Program-made: the position numbers and the translations under genes
From: an uncultured cyanobacterium
Lineage (GTDB): Bacteria > Cyanobacteriota > Cyanobacteriia > PCC-6307 > Cyanobiaceae
NCBI GenBank assembly: GCA_963697335.1
Contig: CAVONQ010000002.1
Location: forward strand, 224,001-288,000
Direction: 5' to 3'
Length of the DNA: 64,000 bases
The notes under the pieces: generated by a model
Told to the model about the DNA's origin: nothing
Database searches by the model: none
Seen by the model: only the letters and a program-made list of their open reading frames with translations
Shown: positions 3,176 to 63,569 of the stretch, one piece after another
How positions within the stretch are numbered: the first letter of the stretch is position 1
How the letters are laid out: the number at the start of each line of letters is the position of its first letter

Positions 3176-5170
<1,995 letters not shown>

Positions 5171-7045: not shown

Positions 7046-10000
7046 GCCTCCCCCTCCAGCACCTGATTCAGGGCCAGCAGGCGCTCCAGAGGCGGGGTCT
7101 CCACCGCCAGCCCGGGTAGCAGCACGGCCTTGGCGGCTTGGCGCTGCGCCCGCTGCGTCGGCCCCGGCACGCCCCGCAGGAAAACGTAGGCGTAGCCGCC
7201 CAGGTGGCAGGCAGGGTCGTAGCCGGGCAGGCGCCAGCGCAGGTAGCGGTGCAGGGCCACCAGATAGAGGTGGGCCTGCAGCGGGTAGTGGTTCGCGGCC
7301 ATCAGGGCGGCCAGGGCGTCAGGCCCGTAGTGGCGGGGGCCGCAGCCCAGGGGCTGGCCCTCGGCATCCCGCTCGCCCAGCCAGTTGCTCTTCCAGTCGA
7401 GCACCCACCAGCGCTCGCCCTGGCGGAACACCAGGTCGATCGAGCCTGTCAGGAAGCCGCGGCTGTGCACATCCAGCAGGGTCAGCCGCTCGGCGTAGTC
7501 GCCACCGAAAGGACCGCCGGGGTGGTCGCGGAATGGCCGGGCCAAGGCCTGGGCCCGCACCAGGCCGAGGGGCAGATCGAAGCCCATCTCGTTCAGCCGC
7601 TCCGCCTGGGGCAGTTGGGCCAGCTGGAAGGTCCCCAGGGGACCACCCAGGGGGCTCAACCGCAGCTGGTCCAGCCCGCAGAGCAGGCCCTCCAGGTGGC
7701 TGGCGGCGATGCCGCTGCGCTGCAGTTCGCGCCCCACCAGCTCGGCCTGGGCGGCGGCGGGTTGCTGGTAGTCGAGCTGCTCCAGGATGCGGTGCAGGCA
7801 ATCGCCTGCCTGGGAGCCGCGGGGGAAATCCGCCAGGGGGCTCTCAGCCGGCCACGACTCTTCGGAGGGTTCCCCAGGGGGCTCGCCGGCCCCGGAGGCG
7901 CTCAGGGGCTCGGGCAGCTCGGGCTCCAGGGCGAGGCCATCGGTTTCGCGGCCCTCCTCCAGGGTCTGGGGGGCGGCGGCGTGGCTGCCCCGGGTCCAGC
8001 TGGTGTAGCTGCTGCGGCCCCAGGTGCGATCGAGAGGATGGGTAGGCACCGGCCCCACGGCCAGCTCCGGGCCCACCGCAGCCGCTGGCGCCACCAGCAC
8101 GGGTGCGCCCGGATCGGGAAGGTCGCGCAGCCGCAGCGGCAGAGTCCGCCTGGCAATCTCCTGGTCGAGGCGCTGGCGCAGCTCCTGGTCGGAGGGGCCG
8201 GTGTAGGGATCGTCGCCCAGCCCGGGCGGGGGCTCCTGGCCGAACAGCCAGCCGTGCAGGGGGTTGCCCTGCTGCTCCTTGACCGGACCCCAGGCGAGCA
8301 GCAGGCGTCGCCGGGCCCTGGTGCAGGCCACGTAGGCCCGCCGCTCCGCCTCCTGCAGTTCGGCCTCGCCGTGCTGCAGCCGGGCCTGGCAGCCCCGGCC
8401 CCAGTGGGCGTTCAGGTGCAGGTCGAGCACCGGTGCGGGGTGGTCCGGCGGCTGCCAGCGCAGGCCCGGGTCCGGGGGCCGGCGGCTAGGGGCCTTCCAC
8501 AGGTAGGGACAGAGCACCACGGGGTATTCGAGGCCCTTGCTGCGGTGGATCGTCACCACCCACACAGCCCCATCCTCCACGTCGCTGTGGGGCTGGTGGG
8601 TCTCGGGGGGATCGGGGTCCGGCTCCAGGCGCCGCTGCCGCAGCCAGTCGGCGGCGGCGGCCGGCCCCAGCTGGTGGCTGTGCAGCTGCTCCTGCACCAG
8701 GGCAGCGCACTGCTGCAGATCGGCCAGCAGCCTGCCGCCCGGGGCGAGCCGGGCCAGACCAGGGGCGTCGAGCAAGGCGGCCAGCACCCCCATCAGCCCG
8801 CGGCGTTGCAGCTGCTCGGTGCCGCTGGCCAGCTCGGCGGCCAGGGCGCTCCACCGCTCCGGGCTGGCCGCGGCCAGCTCCGCCGCACTCCAGCCCAGCA
8901 GCGGCGAGGCCGCCAGCAGCCGCAGCCGGCGGGGATGGCCTGGGTGGGCGAGGGCATCCAGCAGGTGCTGCAGGGCGGTGGCCCCCGGGCTGGTGAACAC
9001 ATCGCCGTCCATCACCAGCCGGCTGGCGATCCGGCAGCGCTCCAGGGCCGCCCGCAGCTGCTCGGCCTGGCGGTGGGTGTTCACCAGCAGGCAGATGTCC
9101 TGGGGGACCTCGCCGCCAGCGATCAGCTCCGCCACCACCCGGGCCACCTGGCTGGGCAGCCGTTTCTCCAGCTCCGTGCTGCTCTGGGGGGCCTCGCCGT
9201 CGCCCCCGCCACTGCCCACCCACAGCAGCTCCAGGCTGCTGGCCGGCTCCAGGAGTCCTGGGGCCGCCTGGCCTGGCCTGGGCTCCACCTCGGGCACCTT
9301 CAGGCCGGAGCGGCGCAGGCCCGGCGCCATCAGGCCGTTGAGGGCCTCGATCAGGGTGCCGGTGGCGCGGTAGTTGGTGCTGAGGGCGCTGACGCCCCCG
9401 CTCGCTTCTGCCGCAGCGGCCGCAAGCCTGTAAGTGGCCAGCTCGCCGCCGCGGAAGCGGTAGATCGCCTGCTTGGGATCGCCCACCAGCACCAGCCGGT
9501 GCCGCTCCGGACTGAAAGCCCGCGACAGGATCCGCCACTGGATCGGATCGGTGTCCTGGAACTCGTCGATCAGGGCGGCGGCGTAGCGCTGCGCCACGGC
9601 CTCCAGCAGGGGGGAGGGGGTGTGGGGGTCCTCGCCCGGATCCAGGCTCTCCAGCAGCTGGCCGTAGCCCATGCGGCCGCTGCGCTCTCGCCGCCGGGCC
9701 AGCTCGCGGCGGCCCCAGTGGCAGGCATGCAGCAGCAGCGCCTCGGCCGGACCCTCCAGCAGGGCTGCCACGGCCTCCATCAGGGGCCGCTCCGGCAGGC
9801 TCGGGTCCCGGCCGCCGGGGGCTGACGGGTCGGCCTCGATCGGCCTGGCCCGCTTCAGGAAGGCGCCAGGGTGGAAGTACTCGTTGAGTTCCTTCTGGGC
9901 CAGGCAGGCGGCGTGGTCACCGCCGTCCGGCTGGCCCGCGATCCAGGCGCTCAGGATGGCGCAGCGGTCCTTTCTGGGGCGAGGGGAGTAGGGAGTGATC

Positions 10001-48195: not shown

Positions 48196-50283
48196 TCAGT
48201 GCAGCGGATCGCTGATCACCAGCACGGAGATGGGCAGGCGGCGCATCAGCCGCCCCATGCGGTCGCCGGCGGGAATCGGCAGTCCGGCCACCAGGCGCCG
48301 TTGGGAGCGCAGGATCACCAGGTCGTGGCGGCGGGCCGCCGCCACGATGCAGGCGTCGATGCTCTGGTCGGACCGGATCTCCACCGTGATCGGCACGGCG
48401 GCGGCCTGCGCCTCGGTGCCGGGCTGCCAGCGGGCCAGTTGGGCCTCCACCGCAGCCCGCTGCTGGCTGCTCTGTCCGAGGTCGGGCACGTGCAGCAGGG
48501 TGATGCTGCCGTCCAGGGCGGCGGCCAGCCGCTCGGCCAGCTGAAACTGCTCCAGGGCACCGGCGGTCACGTCCTTGATGGGCACCAGGAGCCGCTTCAG
48601 GCTGGCGGGATCCCGGCGCAGGCCGGCCACCACCACAGGGCAGCTCACCTGGCGGCAGGTGGCCTCCACCAGATCGCCGAACAGCCACTGGCCGAGCCTC
48701 CCCGGGCGAGCCAGGCCCATCAGGACCAGGTCACTGGCCTGCTCCATCGCCACCCGGGCAATGCCGGCCGCCACATCACTGTCCACCCGCAGCAGGGGCT
48801 GGCAGGGCACCTGATCGGCTCTGGCGATGCCGCTGGCGGTGTGGAGCAGCTCGCGGGCCCGGCCCAGACTCGCCGCCATCGCCGAGGGGCTGGAGTGCCC
48901 GGCTTCCGCCTGCCGCGGCGACACCACCGCCAGGGGCAGCACCAGGCCCGGATCCTGTGAGGAGCCACCGATCAGCAGCCCGGCCAGGGCGAACAGCCGG
49001 GCCTCACTGTTCGGATTCGACACCGGCAGGAGCACCCGCAGGGAACGCCTCACCAGGGCCAGGCGGCCGGTCGCCTCGGCCGTGAGGGAGGCGGCCGCCG
49101 CCTGGGCCAGCCTGGGGATCGCCTGGGCGGTGAGGGCGGGGCCGAGGGTGGCGGTCACCACCATCATCGCCAGCACGCTGTTGAGCACTGCGGCATCAAA
49201 CAGGCCGGCCCGAAATCCCACGAAGGTGGCCGCCAGGGTGGCCGCCACCTGGGGCAGGGACAGCGACCACAGGGTGAGCACCTGGGTGCGGTTGTAGCGG
49301 TAGATCCAGCCGGCCCAGAGGGCGGCCAGCCCCTTGGTGGTGATCAGCGTGGCGATCAGGGCGATGGCGAAGGGGCTGCCCAGGATCGTTCTGAAGAAGG
49401 TGGGCAGGTCGAGCAGCAGCCCCAGGTCGATGAAGAAGATCGGGATGAACAGGGCCGCCCCCACGAACACCACCTGCTCCTTCACCCTCCCTTCCGGCAG
49501 CACGCGGTTGACCGCCAGGCCCGCCAGGAAGGCGCCCACGATCTTCTCCACCCCTGCCAGTTCGGCCCCCAGACCCGCCACAAACAGGGTCAGCAGCACG
49601 GCCACAAACAGCTGGCTGTCGTTGTTGACGCTGCGGCGCACCAGGCCCGTGCCCAGCCGGGTGATCGTGCCCACCAGCAGCAGGGCGAACAGGGCCACCT
49701 TGCCCAGCAGCAGGGCCACTGCCGGCGCTGAGAGTTCGCCGCGGCTCAACCCCATGCAGAGGGCGAGCAGCAGCAGGGCGGCCAGGTCGGTGAAGATCGT
49801 GCCGCCGATGGCCACCACCACCGATTCCTCCCCCACGGCGCCGTAGCTGCGCACGATCGGATAGCCCAGGGGGGTGTGGGAGGCCAGCACCGAGCCCAGC
49901 AGCACGGCGCTCAGAGGCGTGTAGCCGTAGGCCAGGGCCAGGGCGGCCCCCCCCAGCAGCGGCAGGCTGAAGGTGAGCAGGCCGAACTGGAAGGAGCGCT
50001 GGCGGATGCGGGCGAATTCGGCCAGGTCGATCTCCAGCCCTGCGATGAACAGCAGGTAGATCACGCCGATGTCGGAGAGCAGGCCCACGGTGGGGCCCTC
50101 GGTCTGCAGCCACCCCAGGCCATAGGGGCCGATCAGCACCCCGGCAGCCAACAGGCCCACCAGATCGGGCAGCCGCAGCCAGCGGGCCAGGGGGGGCACC
50201 AGCACGCTCAGGCTGAGCAGCAGGGCGAACACGGCCAGGGGTGATCCCTGCAGGAAGGCGGCCATGCCGCTGCTGGGGGCCAT
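48196..50283 (-). CDS. Cation:proton antiporter with C-terminal USP-like domains
   Basis: Multi-TM Na+/H+ exchanger domain (LLFIAGLEID, TIFTD, GAFLAG) plus USP-like tail. Confidence 0.9.
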   Translation of the reverse strand: MAPSSGMAAFLQGSPLAVFALLLSLSVLVPPLARWLRLPDLVGLLAAGVLIGPYGLGWLQTEGPTVGLLSDIGVIYLLFIAGLEIDLAEFARIRQRSFQFGLLTFSLPLLGGAALALAYGYTPLSAVLLGSVLASHTPLGYPIVRSYGAVGEESVVVAIGGTIFTDLAALLLLALCMGLSRGELSAPAVALLLGKVALFALLLVGTITRLGTGLVRRSVNNDSQLFVAVLLTLFVAGLGAELAGVEKIVGAFLAGLAVNRVLPEGRVKEQVVFVGAALFIPIFFIDLGLLLDLPTFFRTILGSPFAIALIATLITTKGLAALWAGWIYRYNRTQVLTLWSLSLPQVAATLAATFVGFRAGLFDAAVLNSVLAMMVVTATLGPALTAQAIPRLAQAAAASLTAEATGRLALVRRSLRVLLPVSNPNSEARLFALAGLLIGGSSQDPGLVLPLAVVSPRQAEAGHSSPSAMAASLGRARELLHTASGIARADQVPCQPLLRVDSDVAAGIARVAMEQASDLVLMGLARPGRLGQWLFGDLVEATCRQVSCPVVVAGLRRDPASLKRLLVPIKDVTAGALEQFQLAERLAAALDGSITLLHVPDLGQSSQQRAAVEAQLARWQPGTEAQAAAVPITVEIRSDQSIDACIVAAARRHDLVILRSQRRLVAGLPIPAGDRMGRLMRRLPISVLVISDPLH

Positions 50284-53364: not shown

Positions 53365-54999
53365 TCAGTCCCCCCGGACCAGCCGCTGGCAGGCGGCCTC
53401 GCAGGCCCGCCAGGTGATCGCCATCGCCGTGAGCGTGGGGCTCTGCCAGCCGGCGCCAGGCCAGCAGGCCCCGTCCACCACCAGCACATTGGGAGCCCGC
53501 CAGCACTGGTTGAAGGGATTCACCACGCCCTCTTCCTCCCTGGCGGCCATGCGGGCGCCGCCCAGCTCATGGATGTAGTAGCCGGGCGGGGCAGCACCCT
53601 GGCCCGCGGCATGGCTGCGGAGGATCCAGGGCTCCAGCAGGGGCAGCACGAACAGGTCTTCGAGCGGGCGGATCGTGCCCCCAGCCGCGGCCACCACCGC
53701 CGCCATCCGCCCCTGCATGTGGGCCACCATGGCGGTTTCATTGGGTCCCCAGCCCATGGAGATGTGCGGTGTGGGCAGCCCCCAGGCATCGCTCTGGTCG
53801 CTGTTCAGGGTGACCCGGTTGTCGGCCCGGGGCAGCACCTCGCCATGGCCGATCAGGAAGCCCACGGCCTCGCCGCGGCGGCGCTGCAGCAGGCTGGGCG
53901 GATCGAAGCGCTGCACCGCCGCCCAGATGCCGTAGCCGCGCTGGAAGCCCTCCTGGCTTGCCCCGTCAAGGTTCACGGTGTTGGGGATGAAGCAGCTGCC
54001 GGCGCCGGAGAGCTCGGCCGGTTCCGCAGGTTGCTCCAGGTCGGGAATCGAGAAGAAGCGGCTGCTGGACACGTGGTCCATCAGATAGTGCCCCAGGCTG
54101 CCGGAGGGATCGATCAACCCGCCGCTCCTGCAGGCCTCGCCGGAGTGCAGCAGGATCCGCAGGGTCTCGATCGTGGAGGCGCACAGCACCAGCAGCGGAG
54201 CCTGCAGCTCCTGCCGTTCGCCGCTGTGGCTGTCGATCACCACCACGCCCCGGGCCCGCCCCTGGCCCGGCTCCATCACCAGATGGCTCACCAGGGCGCC
54301 GCTGCGCACCGCGGTGCGGCCAGTGGCCAGGGCCCGGGCCAGGGTGCTGCCGGGGCTCGACGAGCGGCTCCAGCCCGGGCCGCGGTGCAGGTTGAAGCCC
54401 CGCGAGTGGATCAGGGGCAGGTCCAGGTCGCGGCCGATCGCCTGGCGCAGGTGCTGTTCGCCCGGGGTGAGGGGCAGGGGATCGAGGAACTGGCCATCGG
54501 GGAGCTGGGGCAGGCCGTCGGCCTGGCCGTGCACCCCGAGCAACCGCTCCAGGCGGTCGTAGTAGGGGGCCAGATCCGGCTCGTCGATCGGCCAGCTCGG
54601 ACCACAGCCATCGCGTTCGCCGGCCTTGAATTCGTGGTGGCTCAGCCGCAGGGTGATGCCACCCCAGGTGAGGCTCTTGCCGCCGAGCTGGCGGCCGCGG
54701 GTCCAGAGGAAGGGGCGCTCAGGCGGGGTGGAATAGGGATTGAGCCGCTCGTCGGCGAACAGTTCGGGGTTGTTCTTCCAGTAACCGGGGTGGTGGGCCT
54801 GCAGGCGCTGACGGCCACTGGCGAGATGGGCAACCCGCCTCAGGCTGTTGAGCGGCTCGGCGCCGCGGGCGCGGGCGGCGCCGAGCTCCGCCCCGGCCTC
54901 GAGCACCAGCACCCGCAGGCCAGCCTCCGCCAGCACCATGGCCGCCACCCCACCGGTGGCGCCGGAACCCACCACGATGGCGTCAGGGCGCTCTGTCAT
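53365..54999 (-). CDS. GMC family FAD oxidoreductase
   Basis: VVGSGATGG, GGKSLTWGG, YLMDH, HELGGARM, NVLVVDGA, PTLT.MA. Confidence 0.9.
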   Translation of the reverse strand: MTERPDAIVVGSGATGGVAAMVLAEAGLRVLVLEAGAELGAARARGAEPLNSLRRVAHLASGRQRLQAHHPGYWKNNPELFADERLNPYSTPPERPFLWTRGRQLGGKSLTWGGITLRLSHHEFKAGERDGCGPSWPIDEPDLAPYYDRLERLLGVHGQADGLPQLPDGQFLDPLPLTPGEQHLRQAIGRDLDLPLIHSRGFNLHRGPGWSRSSSPGSTLARALATGRTAVRSGALVSHLVMEPGQGRARGVVVIDSHSGERQELQAPLLVLCASTIETLRILLHSGEACRSGGLIDPSGSLGHYLMDHVSSSRFFSIPDLEQPAEPAELSGAGSCFIPNTVNLDGASQEGFQRGYGIWAAVQRFDPPSLLQRRRGEAVGFLIGHGEVLPRADNRVTLNSDQSDAWGLPTPHISMGWGPNETAMVAHMQGRMAAVVAAAGGTIRPLEDLFVLPLLEPWILRSHAAGQGAAPPGYYIHELGGARMAAREEEGVVNPFNQCWRAPNVLVVDGACWPGAGWQSPTLTAMAITWRACEAACQRLVRGD

Positions 55000-55009
55000 C
55001 GGCGCGAGC

Positions 55010-56341
55010 TCAGCTGCCCGAGAGGCTGGCATCCAGCCGGATCAGGCTCTGCAGCAGCACATTCACGCCCTGTTCGCACTGCTCCGGCGTGGTGAACTCC
55101 GCGGCGGAGTGGGACACGCCATCGCGGCTGGGCACGAAGATCATGCCCATGGCGGTGAGCCTGCCCAGCTCCTGGGAGTCGTGGCTGGCGCGGCTGGGCA
55201 GGTGGGTGTGGCTCAGCCCCAGCTGCTGGCAGCTCTCGGTGATCAACTCCTGCACCATCGGATCGGCGGGGCTGGGATCCACCACGAACTGGGGTGTCAT
55301 CGCGATGCGGGTGCGGCTGGCCACAGCGATGTTCTCGATCTTCCGCTCCAGGTGGGCGCGCATGTGGTCGATCACGCTGTGGGAGAGGTCGCGCATGTCG
55401 AGGGTGAACTCCACCCGTCCCGGCACGATGTTGGCGGCATTGGGCCATACCTGCAGCTTGCCCACCGTGGCCACCGGATCGCCGGGGAAGTGGAGGGCCA
55501 TGTCCTCCACTGCCAGGATGATCTGGGCCGCGGTGGTGAGGGCATCGCGCCGCATGCCCATCGGCGTGGTGCCGGCGTGATTGGCCTGGCCGGTCACGCT
55601 GATCGTGTAGCGCTGCTGGCCCACAACGCCCTCCACCACGCCGATGTCCTTGCCCACGGCCTCCAGCACGCCCCCCTGCTCCACATGCAGCTCCACGAAG
55701 GCGGCGATCTCCCCGGGCGCCCGGCGGGCGCTGGCGCGGTGCTCCCAGGAGCCGCCGATGCTGGCCAGGCCCTCCTGAATGGGCACCCCCAGGGCCGTGG
55801 TGTAGCTGCTGGGGTCGTCGGAAGCGCGGCCCACCAGGCTCTTGCAGCCCACCATGGTGCTCTCCTCATCGGCGAACACGATCAGCTCGAGCGGGTGCTG
55901 CAGGCGCTGGTTGTGCTCCGAGAGCACCCGCACCACCTCCAGCCCGGCCAGCACGCCCAGGGCGCCGTCGTAGTGGCCCCCCTCCGGCACCGTATCGATG
56001 TGGGAGCCGGTGGCCAGCACGGGGGCTCCCGGCTCGAGGCCCTCGTAGCGGCCGATCATGTTGCCGGCGGCGTCGATGCGCACCGCCATGCCCGCCTGCT
56101 CCATCCAGCCCTGCACCAGGGCGCGGGCGGCGCGGTCTTCATCGCTGAAGGCCAGCCGCCGCACGGCCCCGGAGGGCACCCGGCCGATGCTGGCCAGGGC
56201 TTCGAGGTTGAGGGCCAGGCGTTCACCGTCGGCCCGCAGCGCCAGCAACGAGCTGACCGCGGCCAGGGAGGCGGTGTCGCTGCCGAGATGGCCGTTGCTG
56301 AGGGGGCCTGGGCCCAGGGGAGCGGCGCTAAGCTGAGTCAT
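55010..56341 (-). CDS. Zn-dependent N-carbamoyl-L-amino acid amidohydrolase (M20; hydantoinase/carbamoylase family)
   Basis: GSHIDTVPEGG.YDG.LGV, DEE, ELHVEQG, HAGTTPM..RRDA, S.ASHD, G.SH. Confidence 0.92.
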   Translation of the reverse strand: MTQLSAAPLGPGPLSNGHLGSDTASLAAVSSLLALRADGERLALNLEALASIGRVPSGAVRRLAFSDEDRAARALVQGWMEQAGMAVRIDAAGNMIGRYEGLEPGAPVLATGSHIDTVPEGGHYDGALGVLAGLEVVRVLSEHNQRLQHPLELIVFADEESTMVGCKSLVGRASDDPSSYTTALGVPIQEGLASIGGSWEHRASARRAPGEIAAFVELHVEQGGVLEAVGKDIGVVEGVVGQQRYTISVTGQANHAGTTPMGMRRDALTTAAQIILAVEDMALHFPGDPVATVGKLQVWPNAANIVPGRVEFTLDMRDLSHSVIDHMRAHLERKIENIAVASRTRIAMTPQFVVDPSPADPMVQELITESCQQLGLSHTHLPSRASHDSQELGRLTAMGMIFVPSRDGVSHSAAEFTTPEQCEQGVNVLLQSLIRLDASLSGS

Positions 56342-56547
56342 GGAAAGGACCGTATCGGCTGAGGAGAATCGGCTGATCAGGGTGCGGGCGATTCCCCTTG
56401 ATCCATCCGGCCGGAGGCGGGTCTGATCAAAGGTGCCCTTAGGCACAAACTCACGGACCAGGATCGTCAATCATCTCCAGAACCTAATTCTCCGCATCAC
56501 GCGTGGTGGACCCCATGGGCCCATCACGTCCAACCCACCCACCTGCG

Positions 56548-57294
56548 ATGACCTACTCGATCGTTGCCTGGGACAGCCCCACCGGGATGACCGGTGTGGG
56601 CGTAGCCACCCGCCACCTGGCCGTGGGATCCCTCGTACCCCACGCCAGACCTGGTGTGGGGGCCGTGGCCACCCAGGCCGGCACCAACCCCTATTTCGGT
56701 CCGTGGGGCCTGGATCGGTTGGAGCAGGTTCAGCAGCAGAGCGGCGGGGAGCTGGGGGCTGAGGCGGTGCTGGAGTCGTTGCTGCAGGACGATCCGGGGC
56801 GGGATGGCCGCCAGGTGCACCTGGTGGACAGCCAGGGCCGCACCGCCGCCTGGACAGGCCCCGACTGCGCCGGCCTCGCGGCCCATCGCTGCTATCCCGG
56901 CTTTTCGGTCGCGGGCAATTACCTCGCCTCCGAGCTGGTGCTGCTGGCCATGGCCGAGGCCTACATGGCCGCCGAGCGCCATGGTCTGGCCCTGGAGGAA
57001 CGCCTGATGGCGGCTCTGGAGGCGGCTGAAGCCCACGGCGGCGACTATCGAGGCCGTCAGTCGGCCGCCCTGCTGGTGATGCACCAGGAGAGCTATCCCC
57101 ACATCGACTTCCGGGTGGACCATCACCCTGAGCCGCTGGTGGCGCTGCGCGAGATCCTGGCCGAAACCAGCCAGCCCTACTACACCGGTTTCCGCGCCAC
57201 CCTGCCCACCACCCTCGGGGTGGCCCAGACCGCAGAGCTTCCAGCGGCAGGGGTGGAGTCGCCTCAGCCGCCCGACATGCCGATCAGCGCGTAG
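56548..57294 (+). CDS. DUF1028 Ntn-hydrolase-like protein
   Basis: MTYSIVA, GAVATQA, AAWTG, AGN, GGDYRGRQSAAL, RVDHH. Confidence 0.88.
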   Translation: MTYSIVAWDSPTGMTGVGVATRHLAVGSLVPHARPGVGAVATQAGTNPYFGPWGLDRLEQVQQQSGGELGAEAVLESLLQDDPGRDGRQVHLVDSQGRTAAWTGPDCAGLAAHRCYPGFSVAGNYLASELVLLAMAEAYMAAERHGLALEERLMAALEAAEAHGGDYRGRQSAALLVMHQESYPHIDFRVDHHPEPLVALREILAETSQPYYTGFRATLPTTLGVAQTAELPAAGVESPQPPDMPISA

Positions 57295-59330
57295 GCCGGC
57301 TCTGCCTGATCGGCAGCCCCGGGCCTCCAGCCCAGCCGGTCGGCCAGTTCCCTGGCCTGGGCGGGCACATCGGCGGCCACGAACAGCTCGTGCATGATCT
57401 GCACGCCGATCAGGTGATTGATCACGGCGTCGAGCTGCACCCGCGTTGCCGGGCTGGTGGCGGGATCGTCGTGGCGGGCGAACAGCGCCGCCACCCCCGC
57501 CCGATCCAGCAGCCCGGCCCGCTCGATGGCCTCGGCGCTGAGGTGGCGGTCGGCCAGCACCTGCATGGCGGCGCGCTTCTCGGGGTCGGCGTGGGCCGGT
57601 GGGGCCATGAAGGCAAACTTCTCGCGGCGGTAGAGCTGCTCGGGCAGCAGGCCGCGCATGGCCTCGCGCAGCACGTATTTCTCCGTTTTGCCCTTGATGC
57701 GCAGCTCCGGCGGCACCTGCACGGCAACGGCGGCCAGATGGTGGTCGAGGAAGGCGGGGCGCGCCTCCATGGCGTGGGCCATGTCCACCCGGTCGCCGCC
57801 CCAGGTGAGGATCTGGCCCTCCAGCATCGTTTTGATCCACACATACTGGGCCCTGTCGAGGGCATGGCGGCCCTCGAGTTGGGAGGGATCGAGGCTGGCG
57901 GCGATGGCGGCGCCGGGCTCATAGCCGGCGCAGGCCTGGCGGTGCAGCGGAGCCAGCAGGGCCGGCACCAGGGGAGCGCAGGCCAGCCAGGGCTGGAGGC
58001 AGCTGGGCGTGAAGCCCACCACGGCCTCCAGGGCCGGATCGTGCACCTGCTCCTCGGCCAGCATCGCCCCCTGCACCAGCTGGTTGGCCTCCTGCAGCAG
58101 CTGCTCCCACTCCTGGCGATCGGCCTCCGGCAGGTCCTGCAGCCCGTGCAGGAACATGTCGCGACGGAAGGCGGGATACCCCCCGAACAGCTCATCGGAG
58201 CCCTCGCCGGTCATCACCACCTTGTAGTGGGAGCGGTTGACCTCGCGGCTCATCAGGAATTTGGCCACCGCCAGGGTGTTGTAGATCGTGCGCTCGGTGT
58301 GCCAGATCGTGGCCTCCAGGTGGCCGTAGAGCTCATGGCCGGAGAGCCGCATCACCAGTTGGTCGGCGCCGGTGGCCTCGGCCATCGAGGTGGCGATCGG
58401 GGTTTCGTCGTAGCGGCTGTCGTCGAAGCCGATCGTGAACGCCTTCACCGGGTTCTGGCTCACCGCGGCGGCCAGGCCCAGGATCGAGCAGGAGTCGATG
58501 CCGCCGGAGAGGTAACAGCCCACGGGCACATCGGCCACCATGCGCACTTCCACGGCTTCCAGCAGGGCCTGGCGCACGGCGGCGATGTGGTCGGCCTCCG
58601 TGCGGTCGGGATCGCGCTCGCCGCTGCGGGGGAAGTCCACGTCCCAGTAGGGCTGGTCGTCGATGCTGAAGCGCCCGTCGTGGCGGCGCACGGTGAGCAC
58701 GTGGCCGGGTTTGAGCTGGTGCACCCCCTCAAAGGCCGTGGTGCCCGGCACCATGGTCTGCATCAGCTGGTGGAACAGGCCTTCGGAGCTGAAGCGCCGT
58801 TGCACGCCGGGGTGGGCGAACAGCACCTTGAGCTCGGAGCCGAACACCAGGCCCTCCTCGGTGAGGGTCCAGTACTGGGGCTTGACGCCGAAGCGGTCGC
58901 GCACCAGGTAGAGGCTGTCGAGGCGGCTGTCGAACAGGGCGAAGGCGAACTCCCCGCGCAGCAGCGGCAAGCTGGCTTCCAGGCCCCGCTGCTGGTAGAG
59001 CCGCAGCAGGATCTCGGAATCGCTCTTGCTGCTGAAGTGATGGCCCTGGGCCGTGAGCGAGGCGCGGATCGCCTGGAAGTCGTAGAACTCACCGTTGTGG
59101 GCCATCAACAGCTGGCCGTCCTCAGACACAAACGGCTGGCGGCCGCGGTTGGCATCGAGGTCGATGATCGAGAGGCGGGCATGGCAGAAGCCCACGCCCT
59201 GATCCGGCAGGCCCCTCACGCCGAAGCCATCGGGGCCCCGGTGAACCTGGATCGCCGCCATGTTGACGAGCACCTGCTCGTCGATCGGCTGCTGGGGCTG
59301 GAGCTGAAATACTCCCCCGATGCCACACAT
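57264..59330 (-). CDS. asnB: Asparagine synthase-like glutamine-dependent amidotransferase
   Basis: MCGI Ntn Cys, HRGPD, RLSIID, NGEFY, SDSE, LSGGIDS, TGEGSDELFGGY. Confidence 0.93.
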   Translation of the reverse strand: MCGIGGVFQLQPQQPIDEQVLVNMAAIQVHRGPDGFGVRGLPDQGVGFCHARLSIIDLDANRGRQPFVSEDGQLLMAHNGEFYDFQAIRASLTAQGHHFSSKSDSEILLRLYQQRGLEASLPLLRGEFAFALFDSRLDSLYLVRDRFGVKPQYWTLTEEGLVFGSELKVLFAHPGVQRRFSSEGLFHQLMQTMVPGTTAFEGVHQLKPGHVLTVRRHDGRFSIDDQPYWDVDFPRSGERDPDRTEADHIAAVRQALLEAVEVRMVADVPVGCYLSGGIDSCSILGLAAAVSQNPVKAFTIGFDDSRYDETPIATSMAEATGADQLVMRLSGHELYGHLEATIWHTERTIYNTLAVAKFLMSREVNRSHYKVVMTGEGSDELFGGYPAFRRDMFLHGLQDLPEADRQEWEQLLQEANQLVQGAMLAEEQVHDPALEAVVGFTPSCLQPWLACAPLVPALLAPLHRQACAGYEPGAAIAASLDPSQLEGRHALDRAQYVWIKTMLEGQILTWGGDRVDMAHAMEARPAFLDHHLAAVAVQVPPELRIKGKTEKYVLREAMRGLLPEQLYRREKFAFMAPPAHADPEKRAAMQVLADRHLSAEAIERAGLLDRAGVAALFARHDDPATSPATRVQLDAVINHLIGVQIMHELFVAADVPAQARELADRLGWRPGAADQAEPAYALIGMSGG

Positions 59331-59376
59331 AGATCGTCTCCTGGATGAAAGCTTGTACGGCTGAACGTGGCGGACT

Positions 59377-60462
59377 TCAGATGATGTCCATCACCTGGTC
59401 TGTGCGCTCCACCATGCAGGTGAGCAGGGCCATGCGGATGAACACGGCGCCGCGGGCCTGGGAGAAGTACCAGTTGTGGGGGCTGCCATCGAGGCAGGTG
59501 CCCAGCTCGGCCCCGCGGGCCAGGGGGTGGAGGATGATCGCTTCAGGCCGGTAGGGCAGATCGGCGGTGAGGTGGAAGCTGCGGCCATGCACCTCGTAGT
59601 TGTCCCCCACCCAGGCGATCGCGTTGATGTAGATCACATCGAGATCGGGCACGGCGGCGCTGAGGTCATCGCTGGTGAGCACCTTGATGCCGGCCTGCTC
59701 CAGCTCCTCCCGCTGGCCTGGATCAAAGTAGCTCTCGGCTTCCCCAGGGTCGATGCCAGGCTCGTGGAACAGCACCAGTTCATCGATCATCTGCGGGAAT
59801 TTGGTGAGGATGCGCAGCAGGGAACGCACCGTGCGCATGCGCTTCGGGATGCCCACGATGCCGATGCGGATGCGTTGATCGGTGGGCACATCCTGCTCCA
59901 CCAGCTGGGGCCGCCACTTGAAGATGGTGTAGAGGTCGGCCATGGCCTGGGTGGGATGTTCATCGATGCCATTGCCGGCATTGATGATCGGAATCCGCAG
60001 AGATTCCGTCATCTCGTAGATGGCCTGGGCATTGGTATCCCGCAACACCACGCAGTCGCCGTAGTTGTTGAACATCTCGGCCACATCCCGGAGCGTTTCC
60101 CCCTTGGCGATACCAGTGGTGCTGCGATCCGTGATCGTGATCGTGTCGCCGCCGAGCCGGTGCCAGGCGCTGTCGAAGGAGAGTCGGGTGCGGGTGCTGG
60201 GCTCGTAGAAGGCGTTGATCAGGATCTTGCGCTGCAGCGGGCTGTTGAAGCGGATGTAGCGCTGGGGATTGCTCTCGAACTTCGCCGCCAGCCGAAACAC
60301 CTGCAGCAGGGAAGTGGCGCTGTATTGCAGCGTGGAGATCACATGCTGATTCATCAGATCACTCAGGGCCCCGCCGTGCTCGCGGATCTGCTCGAGCAGG
60401 GCCTGTGGGTGAGCGTTCCCATAGACATCAGGGCCGAGCCGATTGAAGTGGGGAGAGTGCAT
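59377..60462 (-). CDS. Aspartate carbamoyltransferase-like protein (divergent PyrB paralog)
   Basis: EPSTRT, KGET, NAG...EHPTQ, RTVRSL, HPLAR; the RxQ aspartate motif is missing; start could be 60573. Confidence 0.88.
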   Translation of the reverse strand: MHSPHFNRLGPDVYGNAHPQALLEQIREHGGALSDLMNQHVISTLQYSATSLLQVFRLAAKFESNPQRYIRFNSPLQRKILINAFYEPSTRTRLSFDSAWHRLGGDTITITDRSTTGIAKGETLRDVAEMFNNYGDCVVLRDTNAQAIYEMTESLRIPIINAGNGIDEHPTQAMADLYTIFKWRPQLVEQDVPTDQRIRIGIVGIPKRMRTVRSLLRILTKFPQMIDELVLFHEPGIDPGEAESYFDPGQREELEQAGIKVLTSDDLSAAVPDLDVIYINAIAWVGDNYEVHGRSFHLTADLPYRPEAIILHPLARGAELGTCLDGSPHNWYFSQARGAVFIRMALLTCMVERTDQVMDII

Positions 60463-60628
60463 CGTCAAAGGTGATCCCGGGGGCTGGGGATGTTGTGGTC
60501 GAACGGGGTGGAAGGCTCCATCTTCCGCCTCAACCGGGTTGTTGTCTGGAATCTCTTGTGTTTTCTGCAACATCGGAACCGCAAAAAAGTAGCGGTATTG
60601 ACCGTTTTGTGATCAGTCGGCCCTGGCG

Positions 60629-60820
60629 CTACCAGACCCGGCCGTTGCGCCACTCCACGAACCAGATGCCCAGGATCACCAACACGGCCAGCACGAGGCC
60701 GGCGATGCTGCCGTACACCACCAGGCCGAACCACCAGCCGGAGATCAGCCAGGAGCCGGCGGGGGCGCTGGTGCTCAGCAGCAGGGAAGGGAACAGGGCC
60801 ATGGCTTGGGGGATGGGCAC
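60629..60820 (-). CDS. Small membrane protein, possible symporter accessory subunit
   Basis: Hydrophobic helix ending EWRNGRVW; starts 3 bp after the symporter stop. Confidence 0.65.
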   Translation of the reverse strand: MPIPQAMALFPSLLLSTSAPAGSWLISGWWFGLVVYGSIAGLVLAVLVILGIWFVEWRNGRVW

Positions 60821-60823
60821 GAC

Positions 60824-62257
60824 TCAGGGGCTCTCGGGATCGCCGGCCAGCTGGCGCCAGTCGTACTGCTCGGGCCAGTAGTGGCTGCCCAGGCCCATCA
60901 CCAGGGCCGAGACGGCGGCGGAGACCAGGGCGGCGCAGTAGGGGGCGATCAGCCCGTAGGCCAGCAGGCCGCTGACCGAGCCCAGCAGCATGGCGGCGGT
61001 GGCCGCCTGGCGGTTGGCCTGGCGCCAGTAGAGCCCCATGGCAATCGGCCAGATCGTGGAGGCCACCAGGGCGCCGGTGAACAACAGCAGCTGGTACATC
61101 GACGTCACGTATTGCCAGGAGAGCAGCATGGTCAGCAGGCCCAGGGCCACCACCACCCGGCGGGCGGCCTGGCGGATCTGCTGGTCGGTGGAGTCGGGGC
61201 GTAACCAGTGGGCGATCACGTCCTCGGCGATCAGATCGGCCGTGGCGGCGAGCAGGGAGTCGAGGGTGGAGGTGAGCGAGGCGAAGATGATCACGAACAC
61301 CACCGCGGCGCCGCTGCTGCCCAGCAGCTGGGCGGTGACGATGGGGAACACCATGTTCACCTGGGGAATCTCGAGGTTCTGGGCCAGGGCCATCAGGGCG
61401 ATGGCGCCCGTCACGATCGGCACGGTGACCCAGGCCAGGCCGCCGAGCACGAAGGAGCGGAACACCACCGAGGGGCGGCTGGCGAACACCCGCGACCACC
61501 AGATGTTGTTGTGGAACACCTCGCCCATGCTGAACAGCCCGGTGTTCCAGGCGAAGAGCAGACCTGCCGGCAGCAGCAGATTCAGTCGCTCGGGATGCTC
61601 GCTGGCCAGGGCCGTGTACACCTGATCGGTGCCGAAGCGGCTGAAGCCGAGCACGGCCACCAGCACCAGCAACGCCATGATCAGCAGCGACTGGATGAAG
61701 TCGGTGCCCACCACCGCTCGCATGCCGCCGAACAGGGTGTAGGTGGTGGACACGCCGATCACACACACCATGCCAAGGCGGTAGTCGAAGCCCGAGAGCG
61801 ACTGCAGCAGCAGGCCGGCCCCCATGCCCTGGGTGATCAGAAAGCCCAGGGTGTAGGCCATGGTGATCAGCAGGAACAGGGCCCAGCAGAGCCGCCCGTA
61901 GCGCAGCCGCACGAAGTCGCCGCTGGTGCGGGCCCGGGGCATCAGCCGCTTGATCCGCACCGCCAGGGGAGCGAACAGGAACAGCCCCAGGCCGGCGAGG
62001 GCGTAGCCGAACATGCCCCAGAGGCCGAGGGTGTAACCCACCTCCGGCGCCGCCAGGGTGGTGTTGCCGGTGACCCAGCTGGCCATCAGGGTGGCCGTGC
62101 TCAGGGCCAGGCCGATGTTGCGGCCGGCGAGCAGGTAGTCGTCGGCGTCGCCGCTGCCGCGCCGGCCCCACCAGATGCCCAGGGCGATCCAGAGCACGGA
62201 GAAGCCCACCAGGAGCAGCCAGGCGGCGCCCGGCGCCAGCATCGCGTCAGTCGTCAT
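60824..62257 (-). CDS. Sodium:solute symporter, DUR3/urea-transporter-like
   Basis: YLLAGR, ASWVTGNT, TLFGGMRAV..TDFIQ, WWSRVFA, STLDSLL; about 13 TM segments. Confidence 0.9.
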   Translation of the reverse strand: MTTDAMLAPGAAWLLLVGFSVLWIALGIWWGRRGSGDADDYLLAGRNIGLALSTATLMASWVTGNTTLAAPEVGYTLGLWGMFGYALAGLGLFLFAPLAVRIKRLMPRARTSGDFVRLRYGRLCWALFLLITMAYTLGFLITQGMGAGLLLQSLSGFDYRLGMVCVIGVSTTYTLFGGMRAVVGTDFIQSLLIMALLVLVAVLGFSRFGTDQVYTALASEHPERLNLLLPAGLLFAWNTGLFSMGEVFHNNIWWSRVFASRPSVVFRSFVLGGLAWVTVPIVTGAIALMALAQNLEIPQVNMVFPIVTAQLLGSSGAAVVFVIIFASLTSTLDSLLAATADLIAEDVIAHWLRPDSTDQQIRQAARRVVVALGLLTMLLSWQYVTSMYQLLLFTGALVASTIWPIAMGLYWRQANRQAATAAMLLGSVSGLLAYGLIAPYCAALVSAAVSALVMGLGSHYWPEQYDWRQLAGDPESP

Positions 62258-62269
62258 CGGGGCAGGGCA

Positions 62270-62398
62270 TCAACCGGGGTCATCGAAGGGATCGCGCTGG
62301 TGCCAGCGCCGGTGGCCGCGCAGCACCATCACCACGGTGGTCAGGGTCACCAGGCCGCCGAGCACGAAGATCAGCAGGGCCCGTTGCAGCTCGGTCAT
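62270..62398 (-). CDS. 42-aa single-TM small protein
   Basis: MTELQRALLIFVLGGLVTLTTVVMVLRGHRRW..., preceded by GGAGG. Confidence 0.7.
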   Translation of the reverse strand: MTELQRALLIFVLGGLVTLTTVVMVLRGHRRWHQRDPFDDPG

Positions 62399-62432: not shown

Positions 62433-62456
62433 AAAAAAGCCCCGGAAACCGGGGCC
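62433..62456 (-). terminator. Terminator downstream of tRNA-fMet
   Basis: GCCCCGG-TTT-CCGGGGC-TTTTTT. Confidence 0.88.
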
Positions 62457-62474
62457 TGTTGAAGAGCAAACAAG

Positions 62475-62551
<77 letters not shown>

Positions 62552-62597: not shown

Positions 62598-63569
62598 TCA
62601 GTCGAAGCGCAGCTCGCCGCGCACGTCCAGCTTCAGGTGCGGTGCCGGCTCCAGGAACGAGCGGCGCAGCTCCTCGAGGGTCATCGGCGTCAGCCAGTCG
62701 AGCTGCTCCAGCAGGTGCAGGGCCACGGCGTGCTTGGCCCGCCCGGCGCCGTCCTCCACCTTGATCGCCACCCCCAGCCCCTCGCCCACCCGGCTGAGGC
62801 ACTGAATCCCCTCGGCACCTCCCTTGCTGAGCACCTGGCCATGGCCCAGGCGCATCAGCTCGGTGTCGAAGCGGCCCTCGCCGGCCACCAGCTCCGGATG
62901 GCTGAGCATCGCCCGGCTGAGCCGCTCCAGGTCGGGTTGGGCGCCAGCTCCGAGGTGGGCGTAGAGCAGGGCCATCTGGGCCAGCTGCAGCTGCAGGGTG
63001 GGTGCGCCGCAGTCGTCGCGGGCCGTGACCAGTTCAGCGGCGGGCAGGCCGAGCAGTTCGGCCACCCGCTTGAGCACCTCCTGCTGCAGGGGATGCTCCG
63101 GCTGCAGGTAGCTCTCCAGGGCCCAGCCCATGCGCCGGCAGGTGGCCAGGAAGGCGGCGTGCTTGCCGGAGCAGTTGTGCTCCAGGGGGCTGCTGCCGTG
63201 CTCGGGCACGGGGCTCTGCAGCTGCTCGGCCTCCACCTCGGCGCCCCACAGCAGCCGGAAGGCCTCGCGGGCATGGCCGGAGGTGCCGGCATGGGAGGCG
63301 CAGGCAATGGCCAGGCCCCGGTCGCCGCAGTTGATCTGGTCGGCGGTGCCGCTGGCCACGAACACGGAGGCCTGAAAGGGCTTGAGGGCCGAGCGCACGA
63401 AGCTCAGCTGCTGGGGATCGCCGGCCCGCATCAGCACGCGGCCGCGGCCATCGCACACCACCGCATGCACCCGATGGCGGGATTCGGTGATGCCGTTGCG
63501 CAGCAGTCGCACCTCCAGGGGAGGAATGGAGGTGCGGGCCGATCCGCCGAAGCTGGGGGGCAGGGACAT
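62598..63569 (-). CDS. L-asparaginase II family protein
   Basis: ES.H, RSALKPFQA, ACASH, HNCSGKH, DDCGAP, SKGGAEG, KVEDG. Confidence 0.9.
   Translation of the reverse strand: MSLPPSFGGSARTSIPPLEVRLLRNGITESRHRVHAVVCDGRGRVLMRAGDPQQLSFVRSALKPFQASVFVASGTADQINCGDRGLAIACASHAGTSGHAREAFRLLWGAEVEAEQLQSPVPEHGSSPLEHNCSGKHAAFLATCRRMGWALESYLQPEHPLQQEVLKRVAELLGLPAAELVTARDDCGAPTLQLQLAQMALLYAHLGAGAQPDLERLSRAMLSHPELVAGEGRFDTELMRLGHGQVLSKGGAEGIQCLSRVGEGLGVAIKVEDGAGRAKHAVALHLLEQLDWLTPMTLEELRRSFLEPAPHLKLDVRGELRFD

Follow-up and report, generated by a model that had tools for sequence, protein, structure and literature searches.

A conserved gene module with a pseudo-aspartate transcarbamoylase and an AsnB-like amidotransferase in picocyanobacteria and gammaproteobacteria: a tentative pathway for an N-carbamoyl amino acid amide

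N-carbamoyl-L-glutamine 1-amide is a compatible solute of Ectothiorhodospira marismortui and has been known since 1991. The N-acetylglutaminylglutamine amide (NAGGN) system consists of Ngg (TIGR03103) and the amidotransferase AsnO (TIGR03104), with a peptidase in the operon. This paper concerns a gene module present in a 64,000-nucleotide stretch of DNA from an uncultured cyanobacterium of the Cyanobiaceae (assembly GCA_963697335.1, contig CAVONQ010000002.1, positions 224,001–288,000), termed here the window; all coordinates are those of this stretch. The module has at its center an altered paralogue of PyrB, the aspartate transcarbamoylase (ATCase), and an AsnB-like amidotransferase, and it may function in the carbamoylation and amidation of an L-amino acid.

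The gene block itself is already in print with an uncharacterized function, and the window carries another copy of it. Barba et al. (2013; PMC4016543), in the sections that treat these proteins, named them pseudo-ATCases and listed their HPLA and AIA/AIS/SIA motifs. The marine subgroup is described there as syntenic with a Na+ symporter, an “asparaginase” and a HyuC-like gene, with hosts that include Synechococcus WH 8102 and Kangiella. (It should be noted that the motif row that fits the marine proteins, i.e. HPLA and AIA/AIS/SIA, is pseudo-ATCase 1 in Table 1 of that paper, but subgroup 3 in its text and in the legend to its Figure 5.) A member of another subgroup, Rxyl_2847 of Rubrobacter xylanophilus, is reported in the same paper to have been shown to be a ureidoglycine carbamoyltransferase. 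Doré et al. (2023; ISME J, PMC10119275), in the part that concerns the block, report it from most warm-water Synechococcus populations as asnB-pyrB2-pydC. This agrees with a statement in the initial annotation of the window that similar picocyanobacterial clusters are annotated as pyrimidine genes. The relevant passages of the two papers do not describe the microprotein, the single-transmembrane partner, the DUF1028 protein or the product that are discussed below.

The G+C content of the region is about 70%, and many spurious open reading frames (ORFs) overlap the real genes as a result; Pfam and NCBIfam scans single out one consistent gene set amid these. Every gene that the initial annotation had listed was found by Pfam, NCBIfam or ARAGORN in its place and on its strand. 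There is a minus-strand run of a small transmembrane (TM) protein, a symporter, a second small TM protein, and the PyrB-like and AsnB-like genes, and next to it a divergent pair formed by a DUF1028 gene and a gene for a carbamoylase-family amidase of the M20 type.

The distribution of the module was followed in two scans. A scan of species-representative genomes gave 546 stretches that encode a relative; the 80 best of these were used, together with 80 of 303 stretches from a metagenome scan. ORFs were called and clustered in all 160 loci (L-numbers below refer to these). Tblastn searches with the window proteins found the symporter (SSF family) and the ATCase-like protein in all 80 genome loci and the AsnB-like protein in 79; the single miss ends at a contig edge. 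A full ATCase-like ORF is present in 145 of the 160 loci. The AsnB-like gene lies directly downstream of it in 133 (median gap 20 bp) and the symporter gene upstream, also in 133 (median gap 118 bp). Where at least 6 kb of sequence is available on either side (93 loci, the full-flank set), the symporter gene stands upstream of the ATCase-like gene in 92 loci, and the AsnB-like gene follows it in 90. An exported, C-terminally anchored protein of about 160 aa is found in 78, a MarR regulator in 33 and a DUF1028 gene in 11, and an M20 carbamoylase gene lies within 6 kb in 46. The core, i.e. the single-TM protein, symporter, microprotein, PyrB-like and AsnB-like genes, recurs in cyanobacteria, gammaproteobacteria and metagenome contigs. 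Thus the cluster co-occurs across genomes and across phyla, which was the first point the initial annotation had proposed to check. The arrangement is far beyond chance and represents a genuine functional module. In the Idiomarinaceae loci the core is present with no adjacent hydrolase, and in marine Synechococcus all module genes are co-oriented and tightly spaced.

A quick maximum-likelihood tree was made of the ATCase-like proteins (68 rows from 147 sequences, with rows at least 86% identical to a kept one dropped). All cyanobacterial sequences form one clade (support of 95 in the approximate likelihood ratio test SH-aLRT), the window protein stands beside a Cyanobium sequence (98), and the PyrB of the host is on a very long branch. 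The gene is patchy in the host's own family, being present in 20 of 151 sampled genomes and in 8 of 64 genera. One contig labelled as a gammaproteobacterial metagenome-assembled genome (MAG), L035, carries the cyanobacterial form of the module including DUF1028, and its ATCase-like protein has 71% identity to that of the window; this contig is probably mis-binned.

The ATCase-like gene, termed PyrB2 or pseudo-ATCase, is at positions 59377–60462 on the minus strand and matches Pfam OTCace_N and OTCace. The ORF is open to position 60573, but homologues have chain lengths of 354–375 aa and the extra residues are conserved in the nearest relative only. Ahead of the Pfam domain, about 35 further N-terminal residues are conserved in the family. 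Among solved structures, ATCases are the closest, with about 140 bits. With the ATCase equivalog model TIGR00670 of NCBIfam the protein scores 184.4 bits, below the cut-off of 236.95. The host genome (98.8% complete) has a true pyrB on another contig, C18, with a score of 295 bits; a third family member, on contig C11, is probably argF.

In the structure of ATCase, R167 and K84 hold the alpha-carboxylate of aspartate, and R229 and Q231 hold the beta-carboxylate. An alignment of the window protein to solved ATCases shows Ala at both the R229 and the Q231 positions of the E. coli enzyme (A-I-A) and HPLA in place of HPLP, while the equivalents of R167 and K84 are kept, as are the carbamoyl-phosphate motifs EPSTRTR and HPTQ. 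The same pattern is found throughout the family: STRTR, HPTQ and HPLA are each present in 145 of 145 homologues, and neither TRxQxER nor HPLP is present in any of the 145. The motif N[AS]I[AS] is present in 142, with AIA in 90, AIS in 42 and SIA in 10. As judged from these motifs, the protein is a PyrB paralogue with an intact carbamoyl-phosphate site but without the ligands for the aspartate side chain, so that “altered carbamoyltransferase”, the term used in the initial annotation, is a fitting one. Retention of R167 and K84 together with the change of R229 and Q231 to Ala suggests that the substrate is an alpha-amino acid with a non-carboxylate side chain.

Over the ATCase-like gene (positions 59000–61000) the G+C content falls to 0.625–0.64, compared with about 0.70 on either side. 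This, together with a 60%–65% aa identity to gammaproteobacterial copies, would fit an acquired origin of the gene. The intergenic region before it is conserved only among the nearest relatives. A sequence in this region, GATGTTGCA(G/A)AAAACACAAGA (positions 60574–60628), is shared with the nearest relative, L008 (at about 9960–10000 of that locus), and the 37 codons that follow it lack conservation at the protein level. Instead of a coding start, the sequence may represent a promoter or leader element.

The AsnB-like gene (positions 57264–59330, minus strand) encodes a 688 aa protein with Pfam matches to Asn_synthase (307 bits) and GATase_6/7. The protein starts with MCGIGG and contains the PP-loop motif SGGIDS. 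It passes the broad model TIGR01536 (421.7 bits, cut-off 267.1), and it is below the cut-offs of both the AsnB equivalog NF006949 (267.7 bits, cut-off 499) and the AsnO model of the NAGGN system, TIGR03104 (311.9 bits, cut-off 570.1). Its best solved relative is a hydroxyamidotransferase. All 141 members of its cluster have MCG among their first 80 residues, and 135 of the 141 have SGGxDS. The protein belongs where it had been placed initially, with the AsnB-like amidotransferases. Conservation of the glutaminase Cys and of the PP-loop points to a glutamine-dependent amidating enzyme, and would favor synthesis over breakdown as the function of the module.

The symporter gene is at positions 60824–62257 on the minus strand (Pfam SSF, 95 bits). 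Its best solved relatives are DUR3 urea-proton symporters, with 124 bits in two stretches, and other SSF members give 42 bits or less; the designation “DUR3-like” is in keeping with this similarity. With the model TIGR00813 it scores 148.1 bits, below the cut-off of 184.

Two small proteins are encoded beside the symporter. The first, a 42-aa single-TM ORF read from the sequence at positions 62270–62398 (minus strand), has tblastn matches at the same place upstream of the symporter gene in most cyanobacterial loci. Proteobacterial loci have at this position a protein about 160 aa long, which carries a signal peptide and is anchored by a C-terminal TM segment. The 42-aa protein is a probable accessory subunit of the transporter unit, of which it would form the first gene. 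The second is a TM microprotein ending in Trp-stop, encoded between the symporter and ATCase-like genes on the minus strand, at positions 60629–60802 (ATG start, 57 aa) or up to 60820 (GTG start, 63 aa). A TM-like frame ending in Trp-stop is found in this place in 129 of 133 loci. A model of the complex of microprotein and symporter gave an ipSAE interface score of 0.85 in three runs, compared with 0.00 for the best of three controls; the pLDDT model confidence of the partner is 74 or more, and 80% or more of the contacts are common to the runs. The mark for ipSAE is reached by 116 of 157 solved complexes and by 2 of 215 mismatched pairs, counts that hold roughly here, where our own alignments were used. 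The model supports binding, and the microprotein is a predicted small subunit of the symporter.

The M20 gene (positions 55010–56341, minus strand) encodes a protein that passes the hydantoinase/carbamoylase family model TIGR01879 (410 bits, cut-off 204) and the subfamily model NF006771 (424.5 bits, cut-off 399). Its best solved relative is an N-carbamoyl-L-amino acid hydrolase (3n5f, 317 bits). Naming it a carbamoylase, as was done in the initial annotation, is in accordance with this family. With the model for ErtE, an N-carbamyl-L-glutamate amidohydrolase (NF058540), it scores 415.2 bits, below the cut-off of 520. By these scores it is a near relative of ErtE and not a member. It reaches the cut-off of no substrate-specific equivalog (ErtE, AllC and others), so that its assignment stops at the level of the subfamily. 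The M20 of marine Synechococcus also scores close to the ErtE model. Gammaproteobacterial and cyanobacterial M20 proteins found beside the core have only 33%–35% identity to each other. NF006771 gives about 484–505 bits with the three gammaproteobacterial proteins scanned, compared with 424.5 for that of the window and 398.7 for that of L028, where ErtE is the top model and where the M20 and DUF1028 genes overlap. The low identity and the differing scores suggest that a carbamoylase was recruited on at least two separate occasions.

The DUF1028 gene (positions 56548–57294, plus strand) converges on the AsnB-like gene and diverges from the M20 gene; about 207 bp separate the probable ATG codons of the divergent pair. 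The match to Pfam DUF1028, a family with the Ntn-hydrolase fold, is 223 bits (gathering threshold 26.2). The N-terminus is MTYSIVA, in which Thr follows the initiator Met. The only solved relative is an uncharacterized structural-genomics entry, 2imh, whose LTFSILA aligns to MTYSIVA. A literature search on DUF1028 yielded nothing relevant. The protein is a candidate amidase, in which the Thr would act as nucleophile and the reaction would be a deamidation. DUF1028 genes are found beside the module in 23 loci, all labelled cyanobacterial with the exception of one MAG. In seven loci an isochorismatase-family hydrolase is found beside the module; the nearest named models are BiuH (biuret) and RutB (ureidoacrylate amidohydrolase), and the scores are far below cut-off for both. 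The order in one of these, L153, is MarR, anchored protein, M20, isochorismatase-like, symporter, ATCase-like and AsnB-like, with all genes co-oriented. Thus the second hydrolase differs by lineage, being DUF1028 in cyanobacteria and isochorismatase-like in the seven loci. According to these family assignments, ureido and amide hydrolases of unrelated families have been repeatedly recruited beside the core. Together with the urea-type transporter, the types of hydrolase indicate that all parts of the module point to ureido/amide chemistry on a small molecule.

From the gene content, the active-site motifs, the conserved gene order and the recurrent hydrolase partners we infer the reactions, their order, the substrate and the physiological role as follows. 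The pseudo-ATCase would use carbamoyl phosphate to carbamoylate a free L-amino acid at its alpha-amino group, the side chain of this amino acid being other than a carboxylate. The AsnB-like enzyme would then adenylate a carboxylate of the N-carbamoyl amino acid and amidate it with glutamine-derived ammonia. The DUR3-like symporter, with the microprotein and the single-TM partner, would import the resulting ureido-amide, either leaked from the cell itself or made by others. In cyanobacteria DUF1028 (amide hydrolysis) and M20 (ureido hydrolysis) would return it to amino acid, ammonia and CO2. A pathway in which an L-amino acid is first carbamoylated and then amidated with glutamine as the donor, and in which the product has its own uptake system and hydrolases to return it, is the best fit to the module as read from its sequences, although as a whole it falls a little short of an even chance. 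This pathway had been proposed in the initial annotation. The conserved module, the PyrB-like protein that is free of the aspartate side-chain ligands, the intact AsnB-like enzyme, the carbamoylase-family M20 and the recurrent hydrolases all speak for it, and the part assigned to DUF1028 stays a prediction.

The best single candidate for the product is N-carbamoyl-L-glutamine 1-amide, though that it should be exactly this compound is unlikely. A full-text literature search by the name of the compound returned papers whose matching text assigns no genes to N-carbamoyl-glutamine amide, in accordance with the earlier statement that no assigned product was known. The top 120 matches of a Thiothrix query name no Ectothiorhodospira. 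It is possible, if rather doubtful, that the pseudo-ATCase and AsnB-like pair is the missing route to this compound or to a close analogue, and that the module runs a pool of osmolyte and nitrogen in marine picocyanobacteria and heterotrophs, made when nitrogen is replete and mobilized when it is scarce. As to the role in general, the product would likely be a neutral compatible solute that doubles as a mobilizable nitrogen store.

The neighborhoods of the module bear on this role. In marine Synechococcus there are two recurrent contexts, one with osmolyte genes and one with urease and MoaA genes. One example is L034, where the module is situated between betaine genes on one side and glucosylglycerate genes on the other. 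The betaine side comprises proVWX-like genes together with one gene for a glycine/sarcosine methyltransferase (428 bits, cut-off 350) and one that resembles sarcosine/dimethylglycine methyltransferase genes. The glucosylglycerate side comprises a gene for a mannosyl/glucosyl-3-phosphoglycerate phosphatase (400 bits, cut-off 373) and one that is like glucosyl-3-phosphoglycerate synthase. The ORFs of L015 are arranged as in L034, and its genes fall in the same clusters. In two loci of non-cyanobacterial type (L139 and L147) betaine methyltransferases adjoin the module, and in three related loci (L152, L153 and L158) a sucrose synthase does. A cluster of ProV-like ABC ATPases was tried as an osmolyte marker and rejected, as the cluster is too loosely defined; NCBIfam confirmed L034 only. 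Among five gammaproteobacterial carrier genomes, none has Ngg or GT20 over cut-off and none has an ectoine synthase match. The host genome has no match to Ngg and none to glycine methyltransferase.

Several observations weigh against the proposed pathway or against the role in osmoadaptation. The host genome has a GT20 gene of the GgpS/OtsA type. The ectoine synthase result carries little weight, since the control matched 0 of 14 genomes and there was no positive control. No M20 gene is adjacent (within 6 kb) in 47 of the 93 full-flank loci. A fused ATCase-like/AsnB-like protein was not found at E-value ≤ 1e-60, although this is weak evidence. The synthetic and hydrolytic genes share one orientation in marine Synechococcus and look co-transcribed; their co-expression would lead to a futile cycle unless activity is regulated. 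Doré et al. (2023), in the part on this block, place asnB-pyrB2-pydC in warm waters depleted in N and P, where a solute with four nitrogens is an odd fit. Rhodopirellula baltica is named as a carrier in the relevant section of Barba et al. (2013), and its solutes in up to 260% artificial sea water, in the portion of the report that lists them (PMC3694870), are only sucrose, glutamate, trehalose and mannosylglucosylglycerate. Thus, of the osmolyte role suggested at the outset, the placement of some loci beside betaine, glucosylglycerate or sucrose genes speaks in favor, while the carriers among Synechococcus of low-nitrogen waters, and R. baltica without such a solute, speak against it. The osmolyte and the low-nitrogen contexts would be reconciled if one pool were solute and nitrogen store at once.

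The low-nitrogen context can also be read in another way. The symporter could import a ureide or urea-like compound and the pseudo-ATCase could run in reverse, converting ureide and phosphate to amine and carbamoyl phosphate that would feed arginine and pyrimidine synthesis, with M20 and DUF1028 freeing the remaining nitrogen. This type of nitrogen scavenging has a precedent in the related subgroup, as Rxyl_2847 phosphorolyses allantoate according to the section of Barba et al. (2013) on that protein. It agrees with the DUR3-like character of the transporter, with the urease and MoaA genes near the module in several marine Synechococcus loci, and with the association to N-poor waters and the phrase “recycling complex nitrogen forms” in the pertinent text of Doré et al. 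(2023). However, the AsnB-like enzyme is as conserved as the transcarbamoylase, with the glutaminase Cys in 141 of 141 members, and an enzyme that consumes glutamine and ATP has no place in a catabolic route. Furthermore, the Idiomarinaceae keep the core where there is no hydrolase beside it. Carbamate kinase and dihydroorotase-like genes are both absent among the Pfam-scanned representatives of most of the neighbor clusters that occur in at least three loci (nine clusters were unscanned by a representative, four of which are covered via individual loci). The NtcA consensus GTAN8TAC is also absent from the window and, within 650 bp upstream of the symporter gene, from all 23 cyanobacterial loci (background, 3.1% of windows). 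Nitrogen scavenging thus appears improbable as the function of the module.

In a second possibility the carbamoyl is a transient protecting group: the amino acid would be N-carbamoylated and amidated, and M20 would then remove the carbamoyl, so that a free amino-acid amide is the end product. This would give the three co-transcribed enzymes a linear use and would avoid the futile cycle in marine Synechococcus. Arginine biosynthesis offers a precedent, as N-acyl protection there is followed by deprotection by the M20 enzyme ArgE. The loci with no M20 gene within 6 kb, about half of the full-flank set (47 of 93), speak against it, and in the window the transcription of M20 and DUF1028 is separate from that of the core. 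The second hydrolase, be it DUF1028 or isochorismatase-like, would undo the amide, and there is no nearby gene for a downstream use of such an amide. We consider this quite improbable.

A third possibility is that the AsnB-like PP-loop enzyme adenylates and aminates the ureido oxygen rather than the carboxylate, so that an amine is converted to a guanidino compound in two steps. The PP-loop superfamily includes argininosuccinate and GMP synthetases as precedents, the glutaminase domain is intact, and the two genes are always adjacent. The recurrent hydrolases, however, are of ureido/amide types, and none belongs to the arginase, amidinohydrolase or deiminase family. We also know of no AsnB-family enzyme with such an activity, and a guanidino product is very doubtful.

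The reading of the block as an alternative route of pyrimidine biosynthesis or salvage, with pyrB2 as an ATCase isozyme and pydC as a beta-ureidopropionase, follows annotation by similarity and a suggestion in the relevant part of Doré et al. (2023), but it is barely credible, since both beta-carboxylate ligands are Ala in the window protein and absent family-wide, the protein is under the TIGR00670 cut-off, a true pyrB is present, and no dihydroorotase-like or dihydropyrimidinase-like gene is among the scanned recurrent neighbors.

Other genes adjoin the module in the window. A tRNA-Met (CAT) at positions 62475–62551 (minus strand), found by ARAGORN and Rfam, lies outside the module and is followed by a terminator-like hairpin at positions 62437–62457 (terminator scan). 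By eye it has the GGG/CCC run at the base of the anticodon stem and a 1:72 mismatch, features consistent with an initiator tRNA and with the tRNA-fMet of the initial annotation. Rfam at gathering thresholds yielded two tRNAs only and no riboswitch in the whole window, and a sigma-70 promoter scan gave no sites. Beyond the tRNA, at positions 62598–63569 (minus strand), is an asparaginase-II-family gene (PF06089) that occupies the same position in L008, L009 and L011–L013; it could add another amidase to the system, or the shared position could be plain synteny of close relatives. At the other end, a GMC-family FAD oxidoreductase gene (positions 53365–55032, minus strand; Pfam GMC_oxred_N and GMC_oxred_C) has a start that overlaps the M20 stop by 23 nt, and the two are probably co-translated. 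NCBIfam gave no model near cut-off for this protein. It is found beside the module only in the closest relatives (L008, L009, L011 and L013) and is lineage-specific. At 3 kb from the module, at positions 48196–50283 (minus strand), is a Na+/H+ exchanger fused to two universal-stress-protein domains, adjoined by a ParB-like nuclease gene and a CbiX gene.

Further neighbors are seen in other loci. In seven marine Synechococcus loci (L019, L020, L023, L026, L029, L037 and L038) a circularly permuted ATP-grasp gene lies about 2–3.5 kb upstream of the ATCase-like gene on the opposite strand, and alpha-E and transglutaminase-like genes are present in this neighborhood in about six loci. In three metagenome loci (L136, L145 and L146, at about 3200–5000) an Amidoligase_2 gene (PF12224) is found by Peptidase_C26/gamma-glutamyl hydrolase-like and MarR genes just upstream of the module. 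The Amidoligase_2 and Peptidase_C26 genes are, by their families, another make-and-break amide pair.

On the proposed pathway the module would spend carbamoyl phosphate, ATP and glutamine, yet its genes are annotated as pyrimidine and asparagine genes. Identification of the product would correct a widespread misannotation, would give functions to DUF1028 and to a published pseudo-ATCase, and would possibly assign genes to a solute known since 1991. It would also bear on nitrogen budgeting in oligotrophic picocyanobacteria. The pool of osmolyte and stored nitrogen, if it exists, would be a small-molecule counterpart of cyanophycin.

The relationship of the module to described systems can be summarized gene by gene. 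The pseudo-ATCase shares with PyrB the fold, the family, the carbamoyl-phosphate site and the equivalents of R167 and K84. It differs in having Ala at the R229 and Q231 positions, HPLA, a score below the equivalog cut-off and an N-terminal extension of about 35 aa. It is of one kind with the marine pseudo-ATCases in the sections of Barba et al. (2013) that treat them, with STRT, HPTQ, HPLA, AIA in place of RxQ, and as neighbors a Na+ symporter, an AsnB-type gene (the “asparaginase” of the 2013 text) and a HyuC-like gene. Rxyl_2847, compared here by its description in that paper only, is likewise a pseudo-ATCase, and its substrate is an alpha-amino acid whose side chain is a neutral ureido group, which shows that this group of proteins has left aspartate; it belongs to another subgroup with another motif set, it has a carbamate kinase/allantoinase context and it is catabolic. 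The window also differs in layout from the marine Synechococcus block. In the window M20 is divergent from DUF1028 and coupled to the GMC oxidoreductase, and DUF1028 converges on the AsnB-like gene, whereas in Synechococcus all are co-oriented.

The window M20 resembles the HyuC-type, ErtE and allantoate amidohydrolase M20 proteins in passing TIGR01879 and NF006771, and differs from them in being under all substrate-specific equivalog cut-offs. In overall logic the module matches the NAGGN system, where an AsnB-family enzyme amidates a glutamine derivative that bears an N-cap and a hydrolase is encoded alongside. The differences are that the AsnB-like protein of the window is below the AsnO cut-off, that the host has no Ngg match, and that the cap would be added by a transcarbamoylase and not by an acetyltransferase/ligase.

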